Below are positions 23,217-50,975 of a stretch of DNA of 64,000 bases, in pieces. The notes beneath the pieces are model-generated. The model worked only from the letters and a program-made list of their open reading frames with translations, made no database searches and was not told the origin of the DNA. The stretch spans positions 1 to 64,000 of the IMG/VR virus record IMGVR_UViG_3300042375_000763. One strand, written 5' to 3'. This DNA comes from a virus. The translations under genes and the position numbers were made by a program. The first letter of the stretch is position 1; each line of letters starts with the position of its first letter.

Positions 23217-23265
23217 GTTAGTCTCCTTGTATAAAGAGGGAACTTAATTGATCCCTCTTATTTTT

Positions 23266-26380: not shown

Positions 26381-26409
26381 AATAGACCTTTCTATGTTGT
26401 GTGATGTGT

Positions 26410-26725
26410 GATGCAACTTTTCTGTTTCTAGGTAAGTTGCCAACCCACAGTACTTATGCTGCTAGAGCAAAAGCCTTAGGTGCGAAATTTTCATTTGCAT
26501 TTCTTATTTTATTGCGTTAACCGAGCTTTCGCCGGGTAGCTCCATCCTGCCTAGTGCGCCTGTCGATCCTATTTATCGCCCAGCAAAGATACCGATCGTC
26601 TTGTTTACATAAACTTATCTCGCCATATGATAGCAATGCTTCATACATCCAAGGGTTCCATAAACTGACCGGTATCTGTGGTGGACGATTCGGGTACCGC
26701 CCCCGAGTCCAGAACGTGTTCAGTG
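26410..26725 (-). ncRNA. ssrA: Two-piece (circularly permuted) tmRNA
   Basis: Acceptor piece ends ...AATCGTCCACCA at 26679. Coding piece starts GGGCGATAAATAGGATCGAC at 26581. G3-U70 pair. Tag reading frame ANENFAPKAFALAA* at 26498-26454. Outer ends are approximate. Confidence 0.93.
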
Positions 26726-26743
26726 AATATCATCACTACATAG

Positions 26744-26968
26744 TTATTTATTACATCTTTTTAAATATGCTTCTTCAAAATCATATTCATGTACACAATT
26801 TTCGTGATTACCCCAGATACGATCAAAGTAACCATTATATACACTCATGATTTCTTTTTCGCGCCAAGAGTCCGGGATAAGATGACCTTTCACAATCCAG
26901 AAGTATCTATTGGCTTCTTTTAATTCAACCTCTGTCATATCTTCTTTGTTTTTCTTCTTCTGAATCAT
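26744..26968 (-). CDS. Hypothetical protein
   Basis: ORF track; FWIVKGHLIP. Confidence 0.55.
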   Translation of the reverse strand: MIQKKKNKEDMTEVELKEANRYFWIVKGHLIPDSWREKEIMSVYNGYFDRIWGNHENCVHEYDFEEAYLKRCNK

Positions 26969-35478: not shown

Positions 35479-35603
35479 TTTGAGGCAGGTGCGGTATCTC
35501 CACAAAGTGTGGTGCCCATGCTCCTTTTGCAGATTGGCCGATCTGCTCTGAACCTATGCCTACGGGTACCAATCCGGCGTATTCAGACTTTACTTACCTC
35601 AAA
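35479..35603 (-). ncRNA. Unassigned structured RNA
   Basis: Closing stem TTTGAGGTAAGT/ACCTGCCTCAAA with internal hairpins. Confidence 0.45.
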
Positions 35604-35605
35604 TT

Positions 35606-35680
35606 TGGTGCTAGTGGTGAGAATTGAACTCACGACCTACTGTTTACGAGACAGTTGCACTACCTCTATGCTACACTAGC
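35606..35680 (-). tRNA. tRNA-Thr(CGU)
   Basis: Cloverleaf, loop CU-CGU-AA. Confidence 0.9.
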
Positions 35681-35761
35681 AAAAACTATAAATGGGCAGT
35701 TTTACTTCATGCCCAGGAATCTCGCTCCGACCACTTACTGATTTAAGAGCAGTAAGACTCT

Positions 35762-36136
35762 TTAGTCTACATCAACCCAAGCAGTGATATGCTTTAGATC
35801 GAGATTAGGGTTAGAGTATTTCTTTACAAGTGTGAGAACTCGAGGAAGTATGTTTTGGTAAAACAAATTTTCACGATCATATTTTCTCTTCTGTTCTACA
35901 TTCTTGTATGCTTTACCAGCGATGTAAGCTCGGGCAAGAAATGTTGCTCTATTCTCATTACGTACGTTCCATCGACGGTGTTCGTTTAGAGAGAACCATT
36001 GGCTTCGTTCAGCTTCTTGGTCTTGCTCATTCTGCTTTTTCCATTCAATTTGTCGCTTGAGTTTGTTCTCTTCGTGACGAATGATACGTGCTTCAACACT
36101 GAGGTGCTTTGATTTTACTTTTAGTTCAATAGACAT
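35762..36136 (-). CDS. Conserved hypothetical phage protein
   Basis: LKVKSKHL..EA.IIR.EE; HR...VR.E.RAT.LA. Confidence 0.7.
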   Translation of the reverse strand: MSIELKVKSKHLSVEARIIRHEENKLKRQIEWKKQNEQDQEAERSQWFSLNEHRRWNVRNENRATFLARAYIAGKAYKNVEQKRKYDRENLFYQNILPRVLTLVKKYSNPNLDLKHITAWVDVD

Positions 36137-36196
36137 TATGTTCTCCTAACATTGATTTGATTTGTAACATTGGTAGTGTTAATATTCAAACTACTG

Positions 36197-36427
36197 TTAG
36201 GGAGGTGCCCAATCTTCAATGATCGCATTATGATCACCGTCAATTTTCAGAATACACTTTTTAACCTTGATAGCACCTTTGGTACTTGGGTTATCAGGTG
36301 ATTCCTTTGTGCTCCAGGACTTGTTACAGTCAACATGATTGACATAGTAGGTTTGTCCTTTTGCTTTTAGCACCCACATCGGTATGCTAGAATCTTCGAG
36401 GTGTTTCTTGTTGAAGTGGAAAACCAC
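36197..36427 (-). CDS. Hypothetical protein (start uncertain)
   Basis: FHFNK.HL.D..IPMW..K.KG.TYYVNHV. Confidence 0.6.
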   Translation of the reverse strand: MVFHFNKKHLEDSSIPMWVLKAKGQTYYVNHVDCNKSWSTKESPDNPSTKGAIKVKKCILKIDGDHNAIIEDWAPP

Positions 36428-36590
36428 ATCATCACACCTCAGTTCAACCTATAAAGACATTGTATTACCCTTTCGTTTAGTGTTAAGTTTCGGGTATGTG
36501 AACACTCCCCGCTCGCGTTTCAGCACTTAATATCAGAGACTCTCTGAGAGCTAATATTAAGTTGGCCGTCACATTCAGCACTGAAATTTA

Positions 36591-36666
36591 TGGTGACCCC
36601 AGTGGGACTCGAACCCACGACATTTGCTTTTAGAGAGCATGCTCTAACCATCTGAGCTACGGGATC
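36591..36666 (-). tRNA. Amber suppressor-type tRNA (anticodon CUA)
   Basis: UGCU-CUCUAAA-AGCA anticodon arm, canonical D and T arms, CCA. Confidence 0.75.
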
Positions 36667-36671
36667 ATTAA

Positions 36672-36778
36672 CAGTTTGTGTGTCTACTTTTTTGGACAGA
36701 AAATCGAAAACTGTTGTGATCTTGTTGCCGAAGCTTACGACCTATGCTATGATTTTAATTGATTGCTGTACACAAACT
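36672..36778 (-). ncRNA. Clamp-motif RNA copy 1
   Basis: AGTTTGTG-TACAGCAA...CACAAACTG. Confidence 0.55.
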
Positions 36779-36791
36779 TGAAATTTTGTTT

Positions 36792-36866
36792 TGGTGCTGA
36801 TGATGAGGATCGAACTCATGACCTCTTCATTACCAATGAAGTGCACTACCGCTGTGCTACATCAGC
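36792..36866 (-). tRNA. tRNA-Thr(GGU)
   Basis: Cloverleaf, loop UU-GGU-AA. Confidence 0.92.
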
Positions 36867-37013
36867 ATTATTGTTTACTTCAAACGAAGCAACCATTTAA
36901 CAATATGTGTTACACCAAGATCCATATTAGGTTGAGGTGCAAGACGACCCGCCTTTGGAGTATCAATGTAACGCTGAATTGGATTAGTCATGATTATGTC
37001 TTTCAATTATTTA

Positions 37014-37322
37014 TTACCACTTGAACTTCGGGTTGTTTGTGAATGTAGTTGTAGTACTATTGATTTGTGAATCAATCTTGAAGTTTGTACTACCAGTAAT
37101 ATTAAAACTTCGGTTGAAATTGGTCACACCGTTGTTATATGAAAATGTTTGTAAAAAATTTCCACGACTTGAAGAAGGAGTATCAGACCTAAGTTGAATT
37201 GTAACCTTTGATCCAATGTTTGATGCAAATTGTGAAACACTATTTGAAGTGCTAAATGATGTCTGTGCAGGTGCTTGCATTGGAAATAGTGTGACTGCAA
37301 GCACCAAAAATACTTTTTTCAT
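37014..37322 (-). CDS. Secreted hypothetical protein
   Basis: Signal peptide MKKVFLVLAVTLFPMQAPA. Confidence 0.55.
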   Translation of the reverse strand: MKKVFLVLAVTLFPMQAPAQTSFSTSNSVSQFASNIGSKVTIQLRSDTPSSSRGNFLQTFSYNNGVTNFNRSFNITGSTNFKIDSQINSTTTTFTNNPKFKW

Positions 37323-37323
37323 T

Positions 37324-37497
37324 TCATTTACTCGGCACTGTCGCAAGTTGCATCCAGAGAGGCATCAACTGCGGAAGGAACGTGGTCAAAATACAGATAG
37401 AAAGAGTCGATAGAACCATTGAAGGGACTAGAAGAGTTTTCTCGTGCATGGAGACAAAAACTGCTGGAACTTTAAAAGCAACTGCGAGATTTTTCAT
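37324..37497 (-). CDS. Small membrane protein
   Basis: One hydrophobic segment; early promoter upstream. Confidence 0.5.
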   Translation of the reverse strand: MKNLAVAFKVPAVFVSMHEKTLLVPSMVLSTLSICILTTFLPQLMPLWMQLATVPSK

Positions 37498-37551
37498 TTG
37501 GTTTCCTTTGTTTGTGTTTATATTATTAATATATACCAAAATTGTGAAATG

Positions 37552-37800
37552 TCAACCGATTCTTTTCAGATATTCGTATGTTTCTTCGTATGTTTTAAAC
37601 AATTTAGTTCCATGTTTACTTACCACTCTCACAGAAGAACCGAAACATTGGACTAGACCGAAACCTGGGTAACGGCCATTACCAAGAAACCTCGTGTTCC
37701 ATCTTGTTCTTCTAGGAACAGGATCATGGTAATTATGATCTATTTTTAGTATTTCAGCACAGTTCTCGTAGAACTCACGCTTTTCATCTAGTGTTTTCAC
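37552..37800 (-). CDS. Hypothetical protein
   Basis: RTRWNTR..GNGRYPGFG. Confidence 0.6.
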   Translation of the reverse strand: MKTLDEKREFYENCAEILKIDHNYHDPVPRRTRWNTRFLGNGRYPGFGLVQCFGSSVRVVSKHGTKLFKTYEETYEYLKRIG

Positions 37801-37990
37801 TTTTTACTTTCAATTTATTTTGCTTGATGAAGGTTGCAATGTCACTCGGGCGGACGCGAACTTCGCGGTCCGATATTACGTATCCAACCTCGTTGTTTTG
37901 ATATGCACCAACACCTCTGATCTTCGTGTGAGTTTTTCCAATGGAATACTCGAACACATTGCCGTCTACTTCAAGTTTACGGTAACTCAT
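37784..37990 (-). CDS. Hypothetical protein
   Basis: Start MSYRK with SD AGGAG; the upstream tracked part overlaps RNA genes. Confidence 0.6.
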   Translation of the reverse strand: MSYRKLEVDGNVFEYSIGKTHTKIRGVGAYQNNEVGYVISDREVRVRPSDIATFIKQNKLKVKSENTR

Positions 37991-38027
37991 TTTTAATTCT
38001 CCTTGCGGGTTGCTAGCATTATTGCTA

Positions 38028-38133
38028 TGGGGTTTCTGGTGGGATTCGAACCCACGTCCCGCAGAGCCAGTTCTTTTTCGGTGTATCTTACCATCATAGC
38101 TGGGGTGCCCTTCTACCGCTGAATTACAGAAAC
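38028..38133 (-). ncRNA. tRNA-like RNA with an expanded (~48 nt) anticodon arm
   Basis: Perfect acceptor GTTTCTG/CAGAAAC, D and T arms and CCA; no 7-nt anticodon loop. Confidence 0.7.
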
Positions 38134-38143
38134 ATGTATTTGG

Positions 38144-38228
38144 TGGTGCCCCTACCCGGACTCGAACCGGGACTCCTTTCGGAAACAAATTTTGAGTCTG
38201 CCGCGACTGCCAATTTCACCATAGGGGC
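38144..38228 (-). tRNA. tRNA-Leu(CAA)
   Basis: Cloverleaf with variable arm. Confidence 0.9.
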
Positions 38229-38234
38229 ATTAGT

Positions 38235-38299
38235 CAGGATGGTTTTTGAGCGTTTACAAATTAAATGTTTGTTGCTTTCTTTTTTGCTGAACCCATCCT
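38235..38299 (-). ncRNA. Clamp-motif RNA copy 2
   Basis: AGGATGG-GTTCAGCAA...CCATCCTG. Confidence 0.6.
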
Positions 38300-38309
38300 T
38301 GGGTCTTTA

Positions 38310-38389
38310 CAGGATCAATTGTGGAATTGAACCACTTATTCAAATTTTGAAGATTTGTTTTTATCCAGATTGTTTACTGAACTGATCCT
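38310..38389 (-). ncRNA. Clamp-motif RNA copy 3 (anticodon-arm plus T-arm mimic)
   Basis: AGGATCAG-TTCAGTAA...CAAAT-CTTCAAA-ATTTG...GTGG-TTCAATT-CCAC..TTGATCCTG. Confidence 0.6.
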
Positions 38390-38461
38390 TTTATTTAATA
38401 TGAACCAATACCTCTTTTGACTTTGCCCACAATATTTTCAAAATGTCAACAATTCTTTTAC

Positions 38462-38728
38462 TTATGCTTCTGGATCTTCATCAAGTTTTTTACAAAACCC
38501 TTCAGCATAAATTTGTTCAGGGAAACCAAGCACGAAGAATGTTGTCTCATTTAATGAACCTTCTGTCACTTCCAAAACCATCTGTCTAGCTCGAATACCA
38601 CAATTTTCTTCTGTTTTATATGGACCCCATGTATCATTTGAAAAAAAACACATGTCTTCGTATATTTGAAATGTAGTACTTGCAGCACAGATAATCACAA
38701 AAGCTTGAAACATTAAACTATCTTTCAT
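38462..38728 (-). CDS. Hypothetical protein
   Basis: Cys motifs, WGPYKTEENC. Confidence 0.6.
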   Translation of the reverse strand: MKDSLMFQAFVIICAASTTFQIYEDMCFFSNDTWGPYKTEENCGIRARQMVLEVTEGSLNETTFFVLGFPEQIYAEGFCKKLDEDPEA

Positions 38729-38838
38729 GTTGGATAGAATTATTTATATTTGGTCGGTCTCTCCCTGGTGTCACACCTTTGCAGAGCGGTCTCTACAACC
38801 GTAAAGGATGCTTCGATGTTTGCAGAGCCTTTGGATTT

Positions 38839-38920
38839 TGGTACTCGCGATAGGACTCGAACCTACATCTTACCTCCAGTTAGCTTTGGCACCGTTCGTA
38901 GCGGTGGGGCGTACGCGAGC
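38839..38920 (-). tRNA. D-armless tRNA-Arg(ACG)-like RNA
   Basis: Acceptor, CACCG-CTACGAA-CGGTG, T-arm and CCA; 7-nt linker in place of the D-arm; 23-nt variable region. Confidence 0.7.
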
Positions 38921-38928
38921 ATTATAAG

Positions 38929-38988
38929 CAGGATCATTTGTTTTTCAAACCAAAATTGAAATTTTCGCTTGTTTGCGGAACTGATCCT
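38929..38988 (-). ncRNA. Clamp-motif RNA copy 4
   Basis: AGGATCA-GTTCCGCAA...TTCAA-TTTTGGT-TTGAA...TGATCCTG. Confidence 0.6.
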
Positions 38989-39110
38989 TTTAGAATTATT
39001 TATATCGGTTTGTCGCAGACACCGTAAAACTGCTTCCGATTGACTAGACGCAGAGCATCACCTCTGTAGGACCGGTGTCCCGAAACCGCCATTGTACAAT
39101 CTTCTAAATT

Positions 39111-39185
39111 TGGTCCTAGGTAGAGGATTCGAACCTCATCTTCCTCAGTCACAGTGAGGAGTGCAACCATTACACCTTACCTAGG
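39111..39185 (-). tRNA. tRNA-His(GUG) with A73
   Basis: CCTCA-CTGTGAC-TGAGG; ends GGA-CCA. Confidence 0.82.
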
Positions 39186-39194
39186 ATAAAAATA

Positions 39195-39410
39195 TTACTC
39201 TTTGCTATTAACAGCAGAAGCAACTCGTGTTGCAATTTCAATCTGCTTCTCTTCTGTTTTACCAAGAATTAGTAGTAAAATTGTAGATAGCAGTCCAAAA
39301 ATTGCACCACCTACAGCCCATCCAATTGCATTACGGCCACGTTCGGTAGCAAGATAGTGATTCAACCATGCCATAAGAGCAGCTGTAATTAGAATTACTA
39401 AAAGTTCCAT
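39195..39410 (-). CDS. Small two-TM membrane protein
   Basis: A.ERGRNAIGW hairpin. Confidence 0.7.
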   Translation of the reverse strand: MELLVILITAALMAWLNHYLATERGRNAIGWAVGGAIFGLLSTILLLILGKTEEKQIEIATRVASAVNSKE

Positions 39411-39442
39411 ATATTTTCTTTCTATTCATGATCATATAAATT

Positions 39443-39517
39443 TGGCTGGGGGAGGAGGGCTCGAACCTCCGACATCCTGATTCAAAGTCAGGCGCTCTAC
39501 CACTGAACTATCCCCCA
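39443..39517 (-). tRNA. tRNA-Gln(UUG)
   Basis: Cloverleaf. Confidence 0.92.
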
Positions 39518-39568
39518 ACGAATTGGTACTCGGTTATATTATTAGTATAAACCGATTCTATAGAAATG

Positions 39569-39823
39569 TCAATCGTTAATCCAATTCTTCATCCAACCTT
39601 TACCTTCAGGTCGTTCTACAACGGCAAACACCGAGTCTTTATGAACTGACCAATTGGTACCTGGTGTGTATGAACCTTTTTCTTCAACACCTTTAAAAGA
39701 CATTTTATTCACCTTTGTCACTTTAACCCAAGCACCGTGACCACCACGATTGCGGCATGGAACAAATACTTCGGTTCCTACAGTAATATCAAATTCTTTA
39801 CCGTAGATTGAAGTGACTTTCAT
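39569..39823 (-). CDS. Hypothetical early protein
   Basis: Early promoter and SD. Confidence 0.6.
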   Translation of the reverse strand: MKVTSIYGKEFDITVGTEVFVPCRNRGGHGAWVKVTKVNKMSFKGVEEKGSYTPGTNWSVHKDSVFAVVERPEGKGWMKNWIND

Positions 39824-39992
39824 CGTGTTTCCTTTTCATTCCGTATATTATTAGTATAAACTGATTCTATACGAATGTCAACAGAAAATGTTTGTCTGTC
39901 ACTCTCCAGACTGCCACCCATAAAATAATATTGCATCACAGTTTCAGGGTCACGATGCAAGGGTATCGTCTCTCTTTAAGAGACTCTAATAT

Positions 39993-40106
39993 CAGGATCA
40001 TTTATTTGCCGGTTGCCTTTACCATTTGGCCACAAAGATCTTGTGTGATCTAAGGTAGGACTTGAACCTACAATCTACTGGTTGTTAAAATTGCTGTATT
40101 GATCCT
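39993..40106 (-). ncRNA. Clamp-motif RNA copy 5 with a circularly permuted tRNA module
   Basis: T-arm GTAGG-TTCAAGT-CCTAC precedes a loop-closed acceptor and the D-arm GCC-AAATGGTAAA-GGC. Confidence 0.7.
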
Positions 40107-40112
40107 TAAACT

Positions 40113-40187
40113 TGGAGCGGACGATGAGATTCGAACTCACGACCTGATGCTTGGCAAGCATCTGCTCTACCACTGAGCTACGTCCGC
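40113..40187 (-). tRNA. tRNA-Gly(GCC)
   Basis: Cloverleaf, U73. Confidence 0.92.
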
Positions 40188-40286
40188 AATATAAAATACA
40201 ATGGAATAATGAGTGAGGTAGCGAACCATCATCTTGTTAATTTCCGTATCTAGACTTCTAAAACTCAGATACAACCATTGTAATCT

Positions 40287-40363
<77 letters not shown>

Positions 40364-40375
40364 ATAAACTTTATA

Positions 40376-40529
40376 ATTGAAAGAACGCTATAGGGTAATT
40401 AATCCTATTCGAGGACGCTGTTTGCAACCAACGTTTGATCCTAACTTTTGTGTTACAGATTCGAACTGTCCCTGCCAGCAAAGGCCGTGCATCCATTTAC
40501 ACCTTACGCTACTTGTCTGTTCCTTCAAT
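40376..40529 (-). ncRNA. tRNA-domain-containing ncRNA (manA-like), copy A
   Basis: Terminal stem, AAGTAGCG, D-like and T-like arms, AAAAGTTAGGATCA; homologous to 46077-46257. Confidence 0.6.
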
Positions 40530-40566
40530 AATAAAGTCTGTAATTTATTATGTTTATTTTTCTAAA

Positions 40567-40580
40567 TTGTCAAAGAGCGG
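40567..40580 (-). promoter_or_regulatory. boxA-like antitermination site
   Basis: CCGCTCTTTGACAA just downstream of a promoter; also at 44137-44148, 46639-46652, 47322-47334. Confidence 0.7.
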
Positions 40581-40616
40581 TTATTAAGTTTACCATATAC
40601 TGATTCTGTGTGTTTG

Positions 40617-40922
40617 TCAACCGAAAAGTTGTTCGGTAATCACGTTAATTTCCTTCGAAGATTGCTTACGAGCTTTACCTTCAAGAGAAGCATCATAGTC
40701 TTTGTAAGCAACTTCAACCTTATAACCAAGTTCATCACCTGATTGTTCACCGATAAACATCATTTCATAAAGACATTTGACGGTGACTTTCAGACTTTCT
40801 TTAGAACCATCATGAGACATTTCCATGATATTGGCGACCGATCTACGACCGTCTTCATCAGACTCAATCCAAAGTACACGGATTGCAGTATCGGAAGCTT
40901 TTTCGAAGATGTATTGGTTCAT
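40617..40922 (-). CDS. Hypothetical early protein
   Basis: Early promoter and SD. Confidence 0.6.
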   Translation of the reverse strand: MNQYIFEKASDTAIRVLWIESDEDGRRSVANIMEMSHDGSKESLKVTVKCLYEMMFIGEQSGDELGYKVEVAYKDYDASLEGKARKQSSKEINVITEQLFG

Positions 40923-40987
40923 GTTCGGTTCCTTTCCTTATATAATCAATATATACTGATTCTGTAAGGATGTCAACCATTATTTTT

Positions 40988-41208
40988 CTGGATCAACTTT
41001 TTGCGTAACCTGCTCTACTACCTGAGCTACTCTCCCATCAAAGATACTGCACGCTAGTTTATACCCAATTGTCTCGCCATATAAGCCTATTAATATCTTA
41101 TACAAGAAAGGTTGTCATAAACTAACAGTATCCGTGGTGGGAGAGGAAGGATTTGAACCTCCGACACGGCCCATTTCAAGGATGCTAATTTGTTGCTGTA
41201 ATGATCCA
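40988..41208 (-). ncRNA. Clamp-motif RNA copy 6: permuted tRNA-Phe-like RNA with a 98-nt intervening hairpin
   Basis: TTGAAAT-GGGCC-GTGTC-T-arm-CTCTCCC-ACCA, insert at 41037-41134, GGGAGAG-D-arm. Confidence 0.75.
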
Positions 41209-41316
41209 TTTTGTATTTGTCAAGCCAGAGCGTCACCAGTGTCGTGGATAGAATGTCTATAGTCACCTATATAAACTCAATCCATGATACCTGGCTATCA
41301 TCTGGCTGTCAGGAAT

Positions 41317-41389
41317 TGGAGCGGGTAGCCGGAATCGAACCGGTCTCCTGCAGATTGGAAATCTGATTGGTTGCCATAACCTTACCCGC
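41317..41389 (-). tRNA. tRNA-Gly(UCC)
   Basis: Cloverleaf, short D-loop. Confidence 0.82.
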
Positions 41390-41395
41390 ATTGAT

Positions 41396-41470
41396 TGGTC
41401 AGTGTGACAAGGATTGAACTTGCGACTTCTAGTTTCCAAAACTAGCACTCTACCACTGAGCTACACACTG
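41396..41470 (-). tRNA. tRNA-Pro(UGG), A37 variant
   Basis: CTAGT-TTTGGAA-ACTAG, C1-G72, A73. Confidence 0.85.
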
Positions 41471-41579
41471 ATATTCGTACTCCGAGGGTCTGAATCTCGG
41501 GAGCCGAGGAAGAGAGGGATAACCTTCAAAGCCAATACAGACAATAGGCTCGGGTCAGTGCGCTTTTCTTCCTAATAAT

Positions 41580-41663
41580 TGGTGCCCAGAGAGGGATTTG
41601 AACCCTCACGCAATTAAGCGCCACCTACTCAAGATGGTGTGTCTACCGTTTCACCACCTGGGC
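41580..41663 (-). tRNA. tRNA-Leu(GAG), U37
   Basis: Loop UU-GAG-UA, variable arm. Confidence 0.85.
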
Positions 41664-41665
41664 AT

Positions 41666-41911
41666 TTAAATTATGCGCGGCGATGGCCATAGACCACGCA
41701 TACAAATAATGTAGTGCAGTCCGTCCATCGGTGCTTGTAGTTTGGGAAGAGCAAAATTGTGGCCGACGGTGCCACCATAAGTATTCCCAACTAAAGCATA
41801 AATTGCTTGTTCTTCATTTACATTTAAAAGTCTACCATCACATGGTAGATAACCTTCTGGTGCATAATTAAATGCTACAAGTTTAACAGTACCTAATAGT
41901 TCTTCGTCCAT
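41666..41911 (-). CDS. Phage tail-collar domain protein
   Basis: LGTVKLVAFNYAPEGYLPCDGRLL...YALVGNTYGG...FALPKL...YIIC..G.WP. Confidence 0.85.
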   Translation of the reverse strand: MDEELLGTVKLVAFNYAPEGYLPCDGRLLNVNEEQAIYALVGNTYGGTVGHNFALPKLQAPMDGLHYIICMRGLWPSPRII

Positions 41912-41937
41912 ATTTTTTCCTTCATATCAAAGTATAA

Positions 41938-42012
41938 TGGTAGTCCGTAAAGGGATCAAACCTTTGACCTTCTCCGTGTAAAGGAGTTGCTCTATCGCTG
42001 AGCTAACGGACC
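41938..42012 (-). tRNA. tRNA-Val(UAC)
   Basis: Cloverleaf. Confidence 0.85.
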
Positions 42013-42019
42013 GTTATTT

Positions 42020-42103
42020 TGGTGCGCCTGGAGGGACTTGAACCCCCACGCCCGAAGGCACTGCATTCTAAGTGCAGCGTGGCTGCCATTACACCACAAG
42101 CGC
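42020..42103 (-). tRNA. tRNA-Leu(UAG)
   Basis: Cloverleaf, A37. Confidence 0.9.
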
Positions 42104-42111
42104 ATAAACTT

Positions 42112-42187
42112 TGGCTGCCCCTCGTGGACTCGAACCACGGTTTCCTGATTCAGAGTCAGGCGTCCTACCGGCATAGACGAAGGGGCA
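42112..42187 (-). tRNA. tRNA-Gln(CUG)
   Basis: Cloverleaf. Confidence 0.9.
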
Positions 42188-42236
42188 AAAATTTCAGCCG
42201 GAAATTCTTTAGTCAGGCGCCGGATCGCCTCGTTAA

Positions 42237-42319
42237 TGGTGTCAATCAAGGAATTGAACCTTGTCATAGCGTGACATGACGCCTGTGATATCTGTGCTGT
42301 TAGCAAACCTGCATTGACA
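42237..42319 (-). ncRNA. tRNA-like RNA (acceptor, T-arm and CCA; aberrant D/anticodon region)
   Basis: TGTCAAT/ATTGACA-CCA and CAAGG-TTCAATT-CCTTG. Confidence 0.55.
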
Positions 42320-42326
42320 TGTTTAT

Positions 42327-42402
42327 TGGTGGACCATGACGGTAACGATCCGTCTCTTCCGCATTGCAAGTGCGGTGTGCTACCCTCTATCACTAATGGC
42401 CC
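42327..42402 (-). tRNA. tRNA-Ala(UGC)
   Basis: G3-U70, loop CU-UGC-AA. Confidence 0.88.
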
Positions 42403-42760
42403 ATAAATTCTGCTGGTTCTCACGTTGTCGAACCGAATGCTGTCTAGAATTTCGACCCGTGCTGGATTTACAGCATCTAAGGTATCTAGATCAAACTCAA
42501 ATTGGACAAGGAGCGGGAAGTTGAACCCACCAGCACGAACCGATATTACCAGTATCATTATCATGCATGCCTGACGCCACCTTTCTTGCAAACTCTGGTA
42601 AAGTCTGCGGTACTTGGATCATCACCCCGTTGGTGCCTACGTTTGCCTCGACCAAATGGGAAGCGAGCATAGGACTTAGTTGATATAGACTGGGCTGGTT
42701 TGCCGACTTGACCTATCTCTAGGGTCACACTCATAAGGGGTGACTATATCCAGTCTATTT

Positions 42761-42836
42761 TGGTGGATCTTATCAGTCTCGAACTGATTACCACGGACTT
42801 CCGCCCAGTGCTTTACCCATCTTAAGCTAAAGACCC
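42761..42836 (-). ncRNA. tRNA mimic with G3-U70/A73 and a GGAA-tetraloop-capped anticodon arm
   Basis: GGGTCTT/AAGATCC-A-CCA; TGGGC-GGAA-GTCCG. Confidence 0.65.
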
Positions 42837-42842
42837 AATGTT

Positions 42843-42919
42843 TGGTTGCGGGAGAAGGATTTGAACCTTCGACCTCTTGGTTATGAGCCAAGCGAGCTAC
42901 CGGACTGCTCTATCCCGCA
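42843..42919 (-). tRNA. tRNA-Met(CAU), initiator-like
   Basis: GAGCAGTCCGGTAGCTC D-arm, CU-CAU-AA, UUCAAAU. Confidence 0.88.
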
Positions 42920-43064
42920 AAAATCTATTTGTTACCTAGTCCTTTCGATTGACAGCCGCTAAACCAATCAATCTGGGTTCTGTCCGATTTTGACTCAAGT
43001 TGAAAGTTGCCATGGCAACCGCTCTCTATTGTCCCAGTAACACGTCCACCCAAAGTCCATTGAT

Positions 43065-43138
43065 TGGCGCACCTGACGGGACTCGAACCCGCCTTCACGG
43101 TTAGACAGACCGCGGCCTTCCCTGACGGCAACAGGTGC
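43065..43138 (-). tRNA. tRNA-Asp(GUC), U37
   Basis: Loop CU-GUC-UA, G73. Confidence 0.8.
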
Positions 43139-43147
43139 ATTGTATTT

Positions 43148-43222
43148 TGGCTCCTCAGACAGGATTCGAACCTATATTGAACAGATTAACAATCTGGAGC
43201 CTTACCTATCGGCCACTGAGGA
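43148..43222 (-). tRNA. tRNA-Asn(GUU)
   Basis: Cloverleaf, G73. Confidence 0.82.
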
Positions 43223-43721
43223 ACAATTCTTTTATATTTTCTTTATAAACCCATTCACCTTTTGCAATGTTAATTTTATAATGAGTTAGATAATATCTTT
43301 CTTCTTCTCTTGCATTTTCAACAACACGGTAATGTTCAACTTTATATCTTTTCATCGGATCATATGTTTGATAAGATCTTAAACGATTTACGAGATTTTT
43401 GGTCATACCAATTTTAATAAAACCATCAAAAGCAGGATTACTAATTAAATAAACAATTCCACTTTTTGTTTTTGTCTTTGATTTATTAGTTTTTACTTCT
43501 TCTATTTCTTCTCTTTGTAAATTTAATTTCAACAAAGATAAACCAGCTAATTTTAAAGCATAATTTTTATTAGAATTTGTTTTTGTATCACCATTGCCAG
43601 AATATTTTGAATATAAAGATACATAGTCTTCTTTCATACTATGGGTAATATCAAATATACCATTCGGTGGCAATGCATCTGTTTCAATCATCTCATAAAA
43701 AATAAAACTATCAAACTTCAC
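43206..43721 (-). CDS. GIY-YIG (T5orf172-like) endonuclease within the tRNA array
   Basis: GIVYLISNPAF...KIGMTKN...RL..YQT.DP...GEW; stop codon lies inside tRNA-Asn. Confidence 0.8.
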   Translation of the reverse strand: MKFDSFIFYEMIETDALPPNGIFDITHSMKEDYVSLYSKYSGNGDTKTNSNKNYALKLAGLSLLKLNLQREEIEEVKTNKSKTKTKSGIVYLISNPAFDGFIKIGMTKNLVNRLRSYQTYDPMKRYKVEHYRVVENAREEERYYLTHYKINIAKGEWVYKENIKELFLSGR

Positions 43722-43738
43722 AATATACTTTCTATATT

Positions 43739-43813
43739 TGGCAGGGGCCGCGAGAGTCGAACTCGCTTCTCAAGGTTTTGGAGGCCCGCGGATTACCGGT
43801 TTCCCTGACCCCT
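43739..43813 (-). tRNA. tRNA-Trp(CCA), weak anticodon stem
   Basis: Loop CU-CCA-AA, G73. Confidence 0.72.
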
Positions 43814-43824
43814 GCATTTAATTT

Positions 43825-43900
43825 TGGCTCCCAGTGACGGGCTCGAACCGCCGACCCAAGGATTAACAATCCTTTGCTCTACCAACTGAGCTAACTGGGA
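43825..43900 (-). tRNA. tRNA-Asn(GUU)
   Basis: Cloverleaf. Confidence 0.93.
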
Positions 43901-43906
43901 ACATTA

Positions 43907-44031
43907 TCTCTGTTTTCAGCTAAGGGTCACCAAGGAATTGAACCTTGCGTTCACTTTGTCGGAAGCTGCCGAAATCGCCGACACGATTAGGGCACTCACG
44001 GACCATCATGACCCTCATGTGAAAACAGAGA
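43907..44031 (-). ncRNA. TCTGTTTT-stem RNA family, copy A
   Basis: TCTGTTTTCA-CA...GC-TGAAAACAGA enclosing a T-arm. Confidence 0.6.
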
Positions 44032-44552
44032 GTATTCAATCTGGTCTTATCGGTTTGTCCGAGCCAGATAATCTCTGTTTTGTTTTTGTAAATCACGGTT
44101 TACAGTTTCATCAACTAACGTGATCAGATTTCTAAATTGTCAAAGAGCAAGATTAACATTCATCAACAAGACACTCATCACCCAGATTAGCATAGTCAAA
44201 GTCTGGGATATATTCCACTTCGATCCAACCTTTTTGGCGAAGCGAGAGCGCCTCATACCAATAGCAAGTAACTTTTTCCTTAGTAATTACATTTTGCATT
44301 ACGTAGGTTTCCATATTATTTCCTTTGGTTGGTTATAAGTTTAGTATAAACTGATTCTTACAGATTGTCAACCAATTTTCCGCGGATATTTTCAAGACCT
44401 TTATCTTTGATAACGGTCAACAGTTCCATGCAAGCATTGGATTTTTCAATCTCACCTGCAAGGAGAAAATCAGCAGCATTACGAGCAAGACGTTCAATCA
44501 GTTTGGTCATTGTCATGTTTCGGTTTCCTTTGTGTTACCTTATATATTTAAA

Positions 44553-44789
44553 CTATACCGATTCCATACGATTGTCAACCACTTTGTTGCGTCTTTGCTT
44601 CTTTTGTTTTTCAAGAAGTTTCTTGGCACGGATACGAGCCAAAGCATCTTCTTCGTCTTTTTGGAGATGCGCTGTTTTTGCAAACCTTGATACTTGACGG
44701 CGAAGTCGAGCAGCAATAGATCGTTTCCAGCGGGTTGCACGTGAAGGTTTTTCGAGTTTGATGTCGACATCTTCTTCTACAGTATCCAT
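44553..44789 (-). CDS. Basic hypothetical protein
   Basis: SD GGAG; Arg/Lys-rich. Confidence 0.55.
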   Translation of the reverse strand: MDTVEEDVDIKLEKPSRATRWKRSIAARLRRQVSRFAKTAHLQKDEEDALARIRAKKLLEKQKKQRRNKVVDNRMESV

Positions 44790-44815
44790 GGTATATTCTC
44801 CATTTTAAATTATGA

Positions 44816-44906
44816 TGGCAGATGGTGGAGGTATCGAACCCCTGACGGGTATCAGCCGTCACGCTAGTTTTCAAGACTAGTCGAAGCACCTGCTTCCGCA
44901 CCATCC
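44816..44906 (-). tRNA. tRNA-Ser(UGA), extended D-stem
   Basis: CTAGT-CTTGAAA-ACTAG, variable arm, G73. Confidence 0.82.
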
Positions 44907-44912
44907 ATAATT

Positions 44913-44997
44913 TGGTACCCCCTGCCGGACTCGAACCGGCACGCCATAACAGCTAGAGATTTTAAGTCTCTTGTGTCTACCATTCCACCAAGGAGGC
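44913..44997 (-). tRNA. tRNA-Leu(UAA)
   Basis: Cloverleaf. Confidence 0.92.
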
Positions 44998-45007
44998 ATT
45001 ATTTAAT

Positions 45008-45135
45008 CAGGATCAACTTTTTGCTACGCGTTTTACTACTAAACTAACCCCTGTCAGTGTATGGTCAGGGGTGTAGGAATTGCACCTACGACTCGATCTC
45101 CGAATGATATGCATATTTGTTGCTGAAATGATCCT
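45008..45135 (-). ncRNA. Clamp-motif RNA copy 7: permuted tRNA-Pro-like RNA
   Basis: TTCGGAG...GTAGG-TGCAATT-CCTAC-ACCCCTG-ACCA-linker-CAGGGGT-D-arm. Confidence 0.72.
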
Positions 45136-45141
45136 TTAATT

Positions 45142-45771
45142 TTATTTTTGTATTAGATAGTGTGTGTCATATGTAAATGCTACAACTTCATTATTTTTGG
45201 TATCTAGAATTGAAAACCCCAAATCCTTGAAGTATTTAAATAATTTGTCACGTTTAACTTGGTCACTTTTTATGTCAGATACTTGATGTGTTTCTAAGAC
45301 AATTGTAGGATAATCTCTAGTAAGAATTTCTTGTCCATGGTAAAATATTTCATATTCACCACCTTCAATATCACATTTAATAAAATCAACTTTGATATCT
45401 TTACAAAATGTATCAAGTGTTATTGATTGTACTTGTATAGTATTGTTTACTGAATGTCCCCATTTCTTGAGTTTTGCCAAACCTTCCATAATAGTGTGAC
45501 CACCATCATTTGCAGAACAAACAAAAAGATCAATAACACCATCTGATGTTCCAATTACTTTTTGTTCTATTTGAACATTTTGTTCAGTAACTTTAGCTTT
45601 AATCTTTGTTACATTGTCTGGGTGTGGTTCAAATGAATAAACTTTCCCAAATTTTGATGCAAGTAATTTTGAGTAAATTCCATGATTTGCTCCTATATCT
45701 AGTGCAATTCCATTTTCATTTACTTCTAAATTTGCTATTACGGTTGCAACCCAATCTTCATTTCTAGACAT
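45142..45771 (-). CDS. FkbM-family SAM methyltransferase
   Basis: LDIGANHG, SFEP, IKCDIEGGE. Confidence 0.9.
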   Translation of the reverse strand: MSRNEDWVATVIANLEVNENGIALDIGANHGIYSKLLASKFGKVYSFEPHPDNVTKIKAKVTEQNVQIEQKVIGTSDGVIDLFVCSANDGGHTIMEGLAKLKKWGHSVNNTIQVQSITLDTFCKDIKVDFIKCDIEGGEYEIFYHGQEILTRDYPTIVLETHQVSDIKSDQVKRDKLFKYFKDLGFSILDTKNNEVVAFTYDTHYLIQK

Positions 45772-45921
45772 AAATTGCCCTCTTAAAATACTATAATTAA
45801 CACCATCTTACTTCTCTGACCTTGGCTCGGGCTGCCTTGGATCAGTTCATCGCAGTATTCCGCTAAGAACCTATCAACCTCATCCCTCTTTTACTCTTGG
45901 TGATAGGCGATGGTGTGTATT

Positions 45922-45996
45922 TGGAGCGGGTAGCCGGCATCGAACCGGTCCTCTCTAGCTTGGAAGGCTAGGGCACATCCTCTATACCATACCCGC
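45922..45996 (-). tRNA. tRNA-Gly(UCC)
   Basis: Cloverleaf. Confidence 0.88.
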
Positions 45997-46076
45997 AATG
46001 TTTTTGGCTCTGCTCAGGCTATGTTGAGCGACTTAGTTGCTTCTTCGATCAGGCCGAAGCAATACCGATAAGTTTA

Positions 46077-46257
46077 TTAGACCTCATAATTGAAGAAATA
46101 TTGTTGGTTAGCTACTCCAAACTAGGGAACTGTTTCGAACCAGTGATCCCAGCTTTTCATGGTAAGGATTCGAACCTTGTCTCCCGCTTCACGCGGGCGT
46201 GCTATCCGGGTTGCACCATTCCACTACTTTACCTATTTCCTCAATGATGAGGTCTAA
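46077..46257 (-). ncRNA. tRNA-domain-containing ncRNA (manA-like), copy B
   Basis: ~24-bp terminal stem; AAGTAGTG, D/T-like arms, AAAAGCTGGGATCA. Confidence 0.65.
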
Positions 46258-46262
46258 AAATT

Positions 46263-46339
46263 TGGTGGTCCCTGTAGGATTCGAACCTACGACATTCCGC
46301 TTAGAAGGCGGATGCTCTATCCAACTGAGCTAAGGAACC
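46263..46339 (-). tRNA. tRNA-Arg(UCU)
   Basis: Cloverleaf. Confidence 0.93.
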
Positions 46340-46416
46340 AATGTGTTTGGCTCTACCCATCCGCTCTTGGGCGATTTAACTGGTGGTGATTTGATTAACA
46401 CCAGTACCGATATGTT

Positions 46417-46493
46417 TGGTAGGGGATGACGGACTCGAACCGCCAACCGTCTTCTTATGAGGAAGCTGAACTAACCAATTGTTCTAATCCCCC
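46417..46493 (-). tRNA. tRNA(CAU): Ile2 or elongator Met
   Basis: Loop CU-CAU-AA, non-initiator body. Confidence 0.8.
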
Positions 46494-46497
46494 AAAC

Positions 46498-46615
46498 TCT
46501 GTTTTGAGCGATATACATTGCCACGATGTTCTCTGCTGTGTTTCAAGCAACACTGTCATGTCTACCCGCTTACATCTTTCGACTGGTGCACGCCATGTAT
46601 ATCTGTCAAAACAGA
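46498..46615 (-). ncRNA. TCTGTTTT-stem RNA family, copy B
   Basis: TCTGTTTTGA-CA...GC-TCAAAACAGA (compensatory G-C pair). Confidence 0.55.
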
Positions 46616-46922
46616 ATTTAATCTGTTTTAGTTCTAAATTGTCAAAGAGCGGTTTGTCATTCAGGGTTTACAGTTTCATCAACTAACCTGATTTATAAGT
46701 TTATATTATACTGATTCTGTGGTTTTGTCAACCGTTTTATGCAAAACCACCAGATTTCAAGCGAGAATAAACAGTCCCATCTTCAACACGAATGAAGAAA
46801 CCATCATCTTCAATGATCTTCTGACCTTTGTAGAAGCTGCCGACGAGATTTTGTTTCATTTGGTTTCCTTTACCTTATATAATCAATATATACTGATTCT
46901 ATAGTAATGTCAACCATTATTT

Positions 46923-47012
46923 TGGCGGAGTCGGGGGAGCACGATTCCCATGGTATTTCTACCACGTTCTGCTTTCCAAGCAGACCTGCCAACCTTGACA
47001 GCTCTCAACTCC
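46923..47012 (-). tRNA. tRNA-Ser(GGA), non-canonical D-arm and T-loop
   Basis: TCTGC-TTGGAAA-GCAGA, G73. Confidence 0.8.
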
Positions 47013-47019
47013 ATAATTT

Positions 47020-47095
<76 letters not shown>

Positions 47096-47100
47096 ATTAT

Positions 47101-47203
47101 TTCTGTTTTCAGCTGCTCTTTTTGGATTCGAACCAGTCCAACCAACTAAATGGGCGAGGTTAACCGTACTACATTACGGACTAAAGAGCATGTGAAAACA
47201 GAA
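47101..47203 (-). ncRNA. TCTGTTTT-stem RNA family, copy C
   Basis: TCTGTTTTCA-CA-TGCTCTTT...TTCGAAT...AAAGAGCA-GC-TGAAAACAGA. Confidence 0.6.
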
Positions 47204-47386
47204 TTTTCAGTATTCCGAAGAATACCTCTAACAAAGGAACATTCAGACACATTCGTCAGTTTGTTCTTCTGTTTTTCAGATCTATTATCGAGTTTCCTCT
47301 AAGACCACAAGGAGTAATTAGTTTCAAAGAGCGGTTTGATTTCCTTTATAAGTCAGTTATAAACCGATTCTCTTATATTGTCAACC

Positions 47387-50078: not shown

Positions 50079-50975
50079 TTACCTACCTTCATACTTTTCA
50101 AGGACGGACTTTAGTTCAGCAACAAGCCGTTCTACCGGAACATCGCGTTTGACAGCTTGATCCAGAGAACCATAGTGCTGTTCTAGACAAGTCATAAGAA
50201 GATCCTTGATAGCATCTTCGTCCGGCACATGCCGAAGGGTTGACTTGGTATAAAGTTCTTCAAGATGTTTCTCCTTAGCATCAAACCAGCTCCGGAGTTT
50301 CTCTTCACTCCAGTCACCACGACGAACTGCTTTCAGGACTTCAGCATTTCGTTCAATGTCAAGATCATGCTCCATCAAGATCTGTTCACCCTCAAGAGCA
50401 AGACGAATAACATGATAAGCAAACTTAAGATCCATGCCGTGTTTTTCGATGTCAGCTTGGCGCTTAGGATTGGAACTATTTGACTTCGTGCCGATCTTGT
50501 GCAATTGAGCATAAGCATATCCGCGGAACTTGTGATACGAATTCTTTGTCAAGAATAGTTTGCGGTTATCACGGACAATCTGAGCAACAGTAGAGCAATA
50601 CAAAACACACCGTTGTGGAGTAAACAGAATGTCAACCATATTCGGATTATTTTCCATTGCAAGTTGAAAAAACTTCACGATTGAATAGATACTGAAGTCG
50701 TATTCTTGACGAGATTCATTATCCATGATGTGATGTTCCTGCCATAATTCAAATCGTTTGTGTTGTAAACCAAAACCAGGAATCTCACCACGAAGGTGCG
50801 GGAAGATGTCATCTTTTGGTGGCATACAAAAACCAACAACATCCATATCAGAAGTGTCTGAACTTACAGCATAGCTGACAGAACCGGTGATCACTTCATA
50901 GTGAATGTTTTGAGGTAGCCACCTTGGCGGACTGATAAGTCCCTTCTGTTTCATTAGTTGTACACGTGATGCCAT
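50079..50975 (-). CDS. Pol-beta superfamily nucleotidyltransferase (NrdC.11/YcgL/RlaP-like)
   Basis: GSVSYA...SDMD, NNPN, K.AYH.IRL. Confidence 0.85.
   Translation of the reverse strand: MASRVQLMKQKGLISPPRWLPQNIHYEVITGSVSYAVSSDTSDMDVVGFCMPPKDDIFPHLRGEIPGFGLQHKRFELWQEHHIMDNESRQEYDFSIYSIVKFFQLAMENNPNMVDILFTPQRCVLYCSTVAQIVRDNRKLFLTKNSYHKFRGYAYAQLHKIGTKSNSSNPKRQADIEKHGMDLKFAYHVIRLALEGEQILMEHDLDIERNAEVLKAVRRGDWSEEKLRSWFDAKEKHLEELYTKSTLRHVPDEDAIKDLLMTCLEQHYGSLDQAVKRDVPVERLVAELKSVLEKYEGR

Follow-up and report, generated by a model that had tools for sequence, protein, structure and literature searches.

The DNA analysed here is the first 64 kb (the window) of an 80,190-bp phage record in IMG/VR, IMGVR_UViG_3300042375_000763 (G000 in our set of viral records), which is approximately 40% complete by the CheckV estimate; all 24 of the 24 sequencing runs holding this DNA are lake-water metagenome DNA. 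Between 28 and 30 transfer RNA (tRNA) genes were called with ARAGORN and Rfam, on the minus strand throughout. The same two programs identified a permuted two-piece transfer-messenger RNA (tmRNA) gene of the alpha type at 26363-26800 (-), with the tag ANENFAPKAFALAA, and six near-consensus sigma-70 promoters lie within 36.4-45.4 kb, on the minus strand like the tRNAs. Spacers of the tRNA cluster hold seven short elements, E1 to E7, in which a constant end-joining handle encloses a variable cargo of tRNA-like parts. Since tRNAs, tmRNA and promoters are all on the minus strand, the elements were read on that strand as well. Judged from their sequences, they are probably the partner RNAs of a Ro60-like protein of the DUF2828 family that the phage itself encodes, and thus a non-YrlA relative of the Ro60/Y-RNA particle.

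All seven elements were found in the tRNA-cluster spacers where the initial annotation of this DNA had placed them, on the minus strand, and the architecture it had described, a shared 5' stem strand, T(A/T)C(A/C)G(C/T)AA, a variable cargo and a complementary 3' strand, is present in seven of seven, with a final G in all. An element begins with A or U, a strand of 7-8 nt and 0-1 further nt, continues with U-W-C-M-G-Y-A-A and a cargo of 35-200 nt, and closes with a stretch rich in A, a strand exactly complementary to the first and then the G. The terminal stem is a perfect 7-8 bp in each element. Four different stems occur among these seven paralogues (AGTTTGTG/CACAAACT, AGGATGG/CCATCCT and A/TGGATCA/TGATCCT/A), and they are always complementary.

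The four elements with hairpin or partial cargo lie at the low-numbered end of the cluster. E1 (36672..36779, -) has the handle AGUUUGUG/CACAAACU with UACAGCAA, and its cargo is a hairpin with the loop UUUUCGAUUUU and a 3' box, AAAAAGUAGACA, a box subtype that recurs beside the DUF2828 gene in two related records, G013 and G014. It lies between tRNA-Thr(GGU) and a suppressor-type tRNA with the anticodon CUA; the latter, directly downstream at 36591-36666 (-), is labelled 'Pyl' by ARAGORN. E2 (38235..38300, -) is short, with the handle AGGAUGG/CCAUCCU, the 8-mer UUCAGCAA and one 5-bp hairpin with the 7-nt loop CAUUUAA, and it ends 6 nt before tRNA-Leu(CAA). In E3 (38310..38390, -), which has an orthologue in record G010, the handle AGGAUCA(G)/(U)UGAUCCU with UUCAGUAA encloses a hairpin and a T arm, GUGG-UUCAAUU-CCAC. 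E4 (38929..38989, -), also short, combines AGGAUCA/UGAUCCU and UUCCGCAA with an anticodon-arm-like hairpin whose loop, UUUUGGU, is invariant in the orthologues of G010 and G003 while its stem changes from UUCAA/UUGAA to UUUCA/UGAAA and CUUUU/AAAAG. Three nucleotides after the end of E4 is an unusual tRNA-like sequence (38850-38925, -) with the acceptor GCUCGCG/CGCGAGU and the T arm UAGG-UUCGAGU-CCUA; its D and anticodon regions are aberrant, and it was missed by ARAGORN and by the Rfam tRNA model.

The remaining three elements enclose permuted tRNA-like bodies. E5 (39993..40107, -) starts 6 nt past the 3' end of tRNA-Gly(GCC) and has the handle AGGAUCA/UGAUCCU with UACAGCAA; its cargo consists of a T arm (GUAGG-UUCAAGU-CCUAC), a 5-bp acceptor-like hairpin closed by ACACAA and a D-arm-like hairpin. 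E6 (40988..41209, -), with the handle UGGAUCA/UGAUCCA and UUACAGCAA, is a circularly permuted tRNA-Phe(GAA)-like gene with orthologues in G010 and G003, and runs in the order anticodon arm, variable loop, T arm, acceptor 3' strand with ACCA, a linker of about 97 nt, acceptor 5' strand and D arm. E7 (45008..45136, -), with AGGAUCA/UGAUCCU and UUUCAGCAA, has a 3-bp anticodon-like hairpin (loop AUUCGGA) and a T arm (GUAGG-UGCAAUU-CCUAC), followed by an acceptor and a D-arm-like part; the acceptor is 6 bp, with ACCA within its 12-nt closing loop. E7 ends 10 nt before tRNA-Leu(UAA) and has an orthologue in G010 (L044). A gene for an FkbM-type methyltransferase (45142-45771, -) lies inside the tRNA cluster and ends 6 nt upstream of E7.

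The 8-mer alone was mildly enriched in the window, with 32 copies found against 19.3 expected. The whole 80-kb record was scanned for the 8-mer preceded by a strand with its complement no more than 300 nt on and with a closing stem of at least 7 bp, and the scan returned E1-E7 and one further element, E8 (68261-68312, -; stem UGGAUGA/UCAUCCA), each of these eight being on the minus strand, in a spacer or leader of the tRNA region; the other matches were scattered noise. E8 lies beyond the window, directly after a strong promoter in a 5' untranslated region (UTR). A ninth copy, E9, also beyond the window, carries a CAG variant of the motif and hence fell outside the motif of the scan. Other readings of these sequences were considered and rejected. 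No terminator-like site coincided with any element, so they were not read as terminators. TACAGC in E6 was not read as a promoter, as the consensus scan made no call there and the other copies have no -35 box, and pairing of UWCAGCAA with the A-rich 3' strand across an internal loop was unsupported beyond an occasional GC/GC pair.

That the stems covary, as had been claimed from the window alone, was borne out by compensatory changes in homologues. An alignment was made of 26 short members from at least eight phage lineages, with six cleanly aligned stem pairs; 99.4% of its stem cells were paired, and both-side changes were seen in five of the six pairs (42 cells). None of 500 shuffles reached the observed covariation, pairing fell to 17-50% when the partner columns were slid, and RNAalifold predicted the same helix. 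A covariance model, R1, was built from these 26 members. It scored E2, a seed member, at 48.3 bits and E4 at 56.7 bits, and it found E3 (29.8 bits, E 2.4e-4) and E5 (25.7 bits, E 0.002) though both are outside the seed; there was no full-span match on E1, E6 or E7. Members with long cargo were located with a Python descriptor scan, the relaxed motif of which has a background of approximately 0.15 matches per 400 nt.

As had been stated, the window contains no TROVE gene; a gene for a Ro60-fold DUF2828 protein is located approximately 9 kb past the window end. The co-occurrence check that the initial annotation had proposed for the TROVE, DUF2828 and RtcB families thus found the DUF2828 gene in the full record, with no match to the TROVE and RtcB families in 80 kb. 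The gene (G000:72813-74276, -) is a frame of 487 amino acids, and its product matched the Pfam families DUF7788 (E 4.6e-40) and DUF2828 (E 3.1e-21). TROVE (PF05731) had no match in the 80-kb record, with the D. radiodurans and B. thetaiotaomicron controls matched. A single-sequence AlphaFold model of the protein was unusable, with a predicted local distance difference test (pLDDT) of 43; a model based on a 28-sequence alignment reached a pLDDT of 78 and a predicted template modelling (TM) score of 0.70. When this model was compared with the PDB using Foldseek, the 12 best matches were all Ro60/TROVE structures, matched over the full length (513-571 columns) with TM scores of 0.42-0.58 and a probability of 1.00; they came from Xenopus, human, Deinococcus and Thermus phage phiLo, and isolated von Willebrand factor A (vWA) domains ranked next. 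The phage protein, as modelled, has the Ro60 fold, a HEAT-repeat ring with a C-terminal vWA domain. DUF2828 is also present in eukaryotes, and a tblastn search found it in 705 cultured-phage records, including Felix O1, KVP40 and phages of Listeria, Staphylococcus, Campylobacter and mycobacteria.

The handle RNAs are coupled to the DUF2828 gene in their genomic position. The 5' UTR of this gene contains E9, the final G of which is 16 nt before the ATG, and the leader reads promoter, AGGUUAG-G-UUCCGCAG, an A-rich stretch, CUAACCU-G, GAAGGAA and ATG; the seven window copies are 28-37 kb from the gene. Homologues of the DUF2828 protein and of an RlaP-family nucleotidyltransferase encoded within the window led to 14 viral records. 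Handles with many new complementary stems were found in G003, G010, G012, G013 and G014, which have a close DUF2828 homologue and true motif copies, and none was found in G001 and G007, complete relatives without the gene. Whole-record searches with R1 gave matches in six of the seven records with a close DUF2828 homologue and in none of the three without the gene; there was also no match in G009, where the homologue is only 25% identical. Non-seed matches of R1 include those in G013 and in the cultured phages S13 and KVP40.

A profile search gave 80 loci with homologues 47-95% identical, and the relaxed descriptor was used to count elements upstream of the gene in 77 of them. The 400 nt upstream of the DUF2828 gene contained 104 elements in the 77 loci, or 1.35 per locus, compared to 0.05-0.29 per locus in the other 400-nt bins from -4.8 to +3.6 kb. 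Of the 77 loci, 59 had one or more elements in this interval, and tandem pairs or triplets were frequent. In 49 loci the distance from the closest 3' end to the ATG is 12-27 nt, with a Shine-Dalgarno sequence directly behind the terminal G; in two more it is 48 nt.

The same association was seen in laboratory phages: Felix O1, KVP40, Cronobacter phage S13 and Sinorhizobium phage phiM12 all have both DUF2828 and the handle. Felix O1 carries four handles (AGACCNN/NNGGUCU with UACAGCAA; NC_005282 23872-23938, 24039-24096, 24493-24560 and 24580-24704) among tRNAs just downstream of its DUF2828 gene, ORF42 (22118-23533), and one of the four contains a permuted tRNA-like body. In KVP40 a minimal 40-nt handle, GACAUU-U-UACAGCAA-…GAGGAA…-AAUGUC (L136:5960-5999; NC_005083 169715-169754, -), surrounds both translation-start signals of the DUF2828 gene KVP40.0300, its Shine-Dalgarno sequence and its start codon, the latter within the 3' strand; by its sequence this handle looks like a candidate translational operator. 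S13 has a permuted tRNA with ACCA inside a handle, and also two tRNAs of 121 and 113 nt in normal order with CCA ends (L137:7896-8016 and 8026-8138; NC_028773 132703-132945), annotated as tRNA-Ser and tRNA-OTHER, in which the handle, closed into a hairpin (…AAAAACG-CAAAC-loop-GUUUG-UAUUCAGCA…), separates the D arm from the anticodon arm. Compared by sequence, this normal-order arrangement is a circular permutation of the arrangement in the window. The variants of phiM12 have stems of 14-20 bp. Phage T5, with 25 tRNAs and no DUF2828, has no handle in its tRNA region. Among the T5 tRNAs are eight annotated stable RNAs, RNAI, RNAIII, RNAIV, RNA1-3, RNA2H and RNAX (NC_005859 30284-33949 and 40848-41566; L142), a separate unexplained set. 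Like the elements described here, T5 RNA1, RNA2, RNA3, RNAI, RNAIII and RNAIV and species 1 and 2 of T4 are small stable RNAs among phage tRNA genes, some of them annotated as tRNA-like; they differ in that the T5 tRNA region is without the handle and T5 is without DUF2828.

The cargo had been said to range from a lone anticodon-like hairpin to an anticodon arm (UCA) with a T arm and whole permuted tRNA bodies. Most of this range was recovered, namely the 7-nt-loop hairpin of E4, the T arm of E3 and the permuted bodies of E5-E7, but the UCA anticodon arm of E3 was not well supported by folding. E5, E6 and E7 have a T arm, a closed acceptor and a D arm, and so correspond to a tRNA body opened where the D stem meets the anticodon stem; E1-E4, E8 and E9 have a hairpin or partial cargo and no permuted tRNA-like body. 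With its handle removed and the order restored, E6 was called by ARAGORN as a 76-nt tRNA-Phe(GAA), with an anticodon stem of only 3 pairs. Re-permuted E7 was called as a tRNA at a relaxed threshold only. ACCA is encoded after the acceptor 3' strand in both E6 and E7. Homology over about 100 nt was found between the E6 linker (41040-41140 aligned) and the intervening segment of the permuted tmRNA; the two align with a score of 50, whereas 200 shuffles averaged 17 and peaked at 26. This likeness suggests that the linker and the tmRNA segment may be a shared module, excised alike to leave a free CCA end.

Among the 78 cargo hairpin loops in 50 short members, collected from many phages, 43 were of 7 nt, and 37 of the 43 had U at position 2. 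The commonest of these 7-nt loops were T loops (UUCGAAU, UUCGAUU) and loops of the anticodon type, CUNNNAA (CUUGUAA, CUUAUAA, CUCAUAA). As far as sequence can tell, the earlier description of a clamp displaying tRNA fragments is a fair one. One member in G012 (L046:17258-17362, -) carries the handle in place of the acceptor stem of a normal-order tRNA-like body with a D arm, an anticodon arm with the loop CUUUUAA and a T arm, and because the handle replaces the acceptor stem here it appears to be graftable at different tRNA positions.

The elements had been likened to bacterial YrlA, a family of Y RNAs. A comparison with the YrlA model (RF02553) left every element unmatched at E values up to 10. 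The gathering score of 69 bits was not reached, and the sole match, of 19.7 bits at 41958-42073, runs across two adjacent tRNAs, a type of false positive described by the authors of the YrlA family (PMC4201824). The YrlA motif GNCGAA(N0-1)G is absent, and the 5' motif is N-U-W-C-M-G-Y-A-A in all nine copies. Searches of Rfam in general gave a similar result: a gathering-threshold scan of the window found tRNAs and the permuted tmRNA only, an E-value scan of 35500-47300 gave no match on the elements, and the region of E8 alone gave none. Megablast of 10 kb against phage records returned single tRNAs only, and no description of this RNA family or of RNA ligands of DUF2828 proteins was found in the literature and Rfam.

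The likeness to YrlA is one of architecture. In both cases the paired ends form a stem, the 5' strand of which adjoins a conserved single-stranded motif, there are several paralogues per genome, a permuted T arm, closed acceptor-like stem and D arm can be present (here E5-E7), and the gene for a Ro60-fold protein is adjacent, with the RNA usually upstream of it. YrlA is likewise encoded beside Ro60 genes, and in M. smegmatis it is cut by RNase P and CCA is added (PMC4201824); E6 and E7 encode ACCA. The differences are that the motif here is UWCMGCAA rather than GNCGAA(N)G, that the protein belongs to DUF2828/DUF7788 rather than TROVE, that many members carry an anticodon-arm-like hairpin only, and that the handle can sit at varied tRNA positions or form an internal hairpin. 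Thermus phage phiLo provides a phage precedent, as its Ro60 binds two Y-like RNAs encoded upstream (PMC12135203). The phiLo Ro60/Yrl1/Yrl2 system (PDB 9KOP, 9L5Y) shares with ours a phage Ro60-fold protein with Y-like RNAs encoded just upstream, and 9KOP was the best structural match to our model. In contrast to our elements, the phiLo RNAs are defined by a CGAA motif in a bulge, their partner is a recognisable Ro60 homologue, and cargo of tRNA parts is not described for them. Since the elements have the architecture of Y RNAs and YrlA, and since phiLo Ro60 sets a precedent, they were read as partners of the DUF2828 protein. The initial proposal of a Y-RNA-like scaffold with one protein partner is thereby retained in part: the Ro60-fold gene in the record, the leader copy and the adjacency in most of the 77 loci and in four cultured lineages all speak for it, but the RNAs are not YrlA.

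A second likeness is to the Class I RNAs of Dictyostelium, which are 42-65 nt long and have a short end-joining stem, an 11-nt motif by the 5' strand and a variable interior, starting with AAG, ending with CUGU and showing many compensatory stem changes (PMC7919456). For searches, the pattern GTTGRC-CCTTACAGCAA ... GTCAAC-TG has been published (PMC5054030). Its core CCTTACAGCAA contains UUACAGCAA, and E6 reads UGGAUCA-UUACAGCAA ... UGAUCCA-G; a length of about 60 nt, many paralogues and the variable interior are further points in common. When the pattern was applied to the elements, the stem and the (U)UACAGCAA core were present and the first two C's of the 11-mer were absent. E1-E5, E7 and E9 start with AAG, and E6 and E8 with AUG; after the 3' strand there is a G in every copy, extended to GU in E1, E3 and most relatives. 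The Class I model RF01414 (cut-off 41.5 bits) reached at best 10.9 and 9.2 bits in the whole record (E 2.9 and 7.9), the second of these on E8, and because this model gave no match the phage RNAs were not filed as Class I members. Class I RNAs also differ in being eukaryotic and in having a Dictyostelium upstream sequence element (DUSE) promoter about 60 nt upstream, whereas the phage elements have sigma-70-type promoters or lie in tRNA operons. The only direct binder demonstrated for Class I RNAs is an RNA recognition motif (RRM) protein, and their authors found none of these RNAs outside Dictyostelia; DDB_G0281243, a protein whose function is not known, was one of four pulled down with a Class I RNA, DdR-21. 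By analogy, the handle could be an ancient recognition module of DUF2828-type Ro60-like proteins, common to phages of hosts from many phyla and to dictyostelid Class I RNAs, in which case Class I RNAs would be the Y RNAs of a eukaryotic DUF2828 protein and the phage versions a programmable display of tRNA parts on a Ro-like ring. We put this idea forward tentatively, and think it rather unlikely.

Several observations weigh against the elements being partners of the DUF2828 protein. The 24 runs listed for this DNA include no RNA run, and transcripts, discrete ends and binding are predicted from sequence. The handle is unlike the Ro60 sites GGUCCGA or GNCGAA and matches no Rfam family. The short members were chosen by a scan that requires a stem, which makes the covariation count partly circular; independent support comes from the enrichment by position, from the orthologous placing in leaders and from model matches outside the seed. 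R1 misses phiM12, the stems of which are much longer. The RtcB, Rnl2-type and Rnl1-type ligase families had no match in the 80 kb of a record that is only about 40% complete, and the Rnl1 search was made without a positive control. Finally, handles and the DUF2828 gene share a location in tRNA clusters, which could inflate their co-occurrence, and the DUF2828-negative records G001 and G007 have few tRNA genes near RlaP in the loci examined.

The elements might instead be split or permuted tRNA genes, with the handle as a processing signal that is cut out before the ends are ligated, and with the Ro60-like protein and RlaP as maturation or repair machinery. Bulge-helix-bulge motifs serve as such a signal in the permuted tRNAs of archaea and algae, and they are known from introns and permuted genes alike, a duality that the handle shows as well in S13. 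As in permuted tRNA genes of the Cyanidioschyzon merolae type and in alphaproteobacterial tmRNA, the 3' half precedes the 5' half, and E6 can be restored to a recognisable tRNA-Phe. ACCA in E6 and E7, the homology of the E6 linker to the excised tmRNA segment, which makes processing at the acceptor end plausible, the hairpin form of the handle that two normal-order S13 tRNAs carry at the D/anticodon junction, and a repair enzyme of the RlaP family encoded 5 kb away all fit as well. However, most members (E1-E4, E8, E9 and most leader copies) lack a complete tRNA, and removal of the handle would yield none; the anticodon stems of E6 and E7 have 3 pairs only, and their loop sequences vary among orthologues. 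The handle is conserved in sequence and not just in shape, it occurs in an mRNA leader, and no ligase family was matched in 80 kb. The break also lies at 26/27 rather than in the anticodon, T or D loop, and a bulge-helix-bulge is not evident, though no dedicated tool was used. Permuted tRNA genes are therefore an improbable explanation of the family.

A cis-acting or host-factor-bound element of early transcripts, with a role in processing, stability or translational control and recognised by a factor other than DUF2828, is unlikely but would account for part of what was seen, the copies in the tRNA cluster being then operon punctuation and the leader copy a sign of ordinary regulation of the DUF2828 gene. 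E8 and E9 do lie directly after strong promoters in 5' UTRs, many leader copies abut a Shine-Dalgarno sequence, and tRNAs are within 3-10 nt of elements, where RNase P and 3' processing act. Yet the enrichment is specific to the DUF2828 gene, approximately nine-fold over other positions that hold many early genes, and no such element was found in T5, for all its large tRNA operon and annotated stable RNAs. Variable, selected tRNA-like cargo with invariant loops and covarying stems would not be expected of punctuation, and an end-joined stem with an adjacent single-stranded motif is what Ro60-family proteins bind (PMC4201824). We consider it very improbable that the elements are miniature mobile DNA elements or recombination sites that captured tRNA fragments. 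Short terminal inverted repeats, a variable interior, multiple copies per genome and the genes for HNH and GIY-YIG homing endonucleases scattered through these tRNA regions would suit such an origin, but every copy is in the orientation of transcription, the arms change by compensatory substitution instead of being kept as a protein-binding sequence, and the conserved 8-mer is asymmetric, on one side only. Moreover, orthologous positions at a fixed distance from the start codon are found across phages with DUF2828 proteins 47-77% identical, and no flanking direct repeats were seen in the sequences read.

Partnership with the DUF2828 protein remains the reading that we favour. It starts from the RNA architecture, the covariation, the genomic coupling and the Ro60 fold of the predicted protein model reported above, and binding, processing and autoregulation probably go with it. 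The elements would be small non-coding RNAs on the transcripts of the phage tRNA operons. Because flanking tRNAs are within 3-10 nt, they would be released with short tails by the tRNA-processing enzymes, that is by RNase P and 3' trimming. The constant handle consists of the end-joining helix of 7-8 bp, single-stranded N-U-W-C-M-G-C-A-A, the A-rich 3' strand and a 3' G overhang, and is most probably the recognition site of the ring protein with its DUF2828 and vWA-like DUF7788 parts, which would make the RNAs functional analogues of Y RNAs. The variable cargo on this handle is an anticodon-arm-like hairpin, a hairpin and T arm, or a whole tRNA body with a closed acceptor end, and in E6 and E7 processing of the acceptor end could give a free CCA. 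Leader copies abutting the ribosome-binding site are putative operators, through which the protein probably represses its own translation. More speculatively, the particle may show tRNA look-alikes to tRNA-directed enzymes or nucleases in infection; candidate roles, equally speculative, are a decoy for anticodon nucleases, an adaptor for a nuclease, polynucleotide phosphorylase (PNPase) or another enzyme, and tRNA repair with RlaP.

The RlaP-family gene (50079..50975, -; PF10127, E 3.7e-19) belongs to an RNA-repair family and is noted as context only; RlaP adds 1-2 nucleotides to damaged RNA 3' ends (bioRxiv 10.64898/2025.12.29.696909). Two other features of the tRNA region were observed. A 103-nt Rfam tRNA match of 41.3 bits at 38031-38133 (-) has about 30 extra nucleotides in the anticodon region and was not called by ARAGORN. 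A repeated box, GCUCUUUGACAAUUUAGAA, is present in three copies at about 40570-40590, 44130-44155 and 46640-46665 (-), and a second repeated stretch, GUUAGUUGAUGAAACUGUAAACC, lies close to two of the three; these repeats may be a second class of promoter or another repeated RNA.

Compared to the known Ro60/Y-RNA particle, what appears to be new in these sequences is a different protein family, a different recognition motif and a modular cargo of tRNA parts. Hundreds of cultured phages encode DUF2828 "Ro-like RNA-binding proteins", and the handle provides a concrete candidate ligand for them with a defined motif. The predicted autoregulatory operator and the availability of the laboratory phages Felix O1, KVP40 and S13 make this ligand directly testable. 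The modular cargo hints at phage manipulation of anticodon nucleases, repair and modification. The match to the Class I pattern likewise makes the question of which proteins bind Class I RNAs testable, and if the recognition module were indeed shared, these abundant RNAs, unexplained for 20 years, would be explained as Y RNAs.

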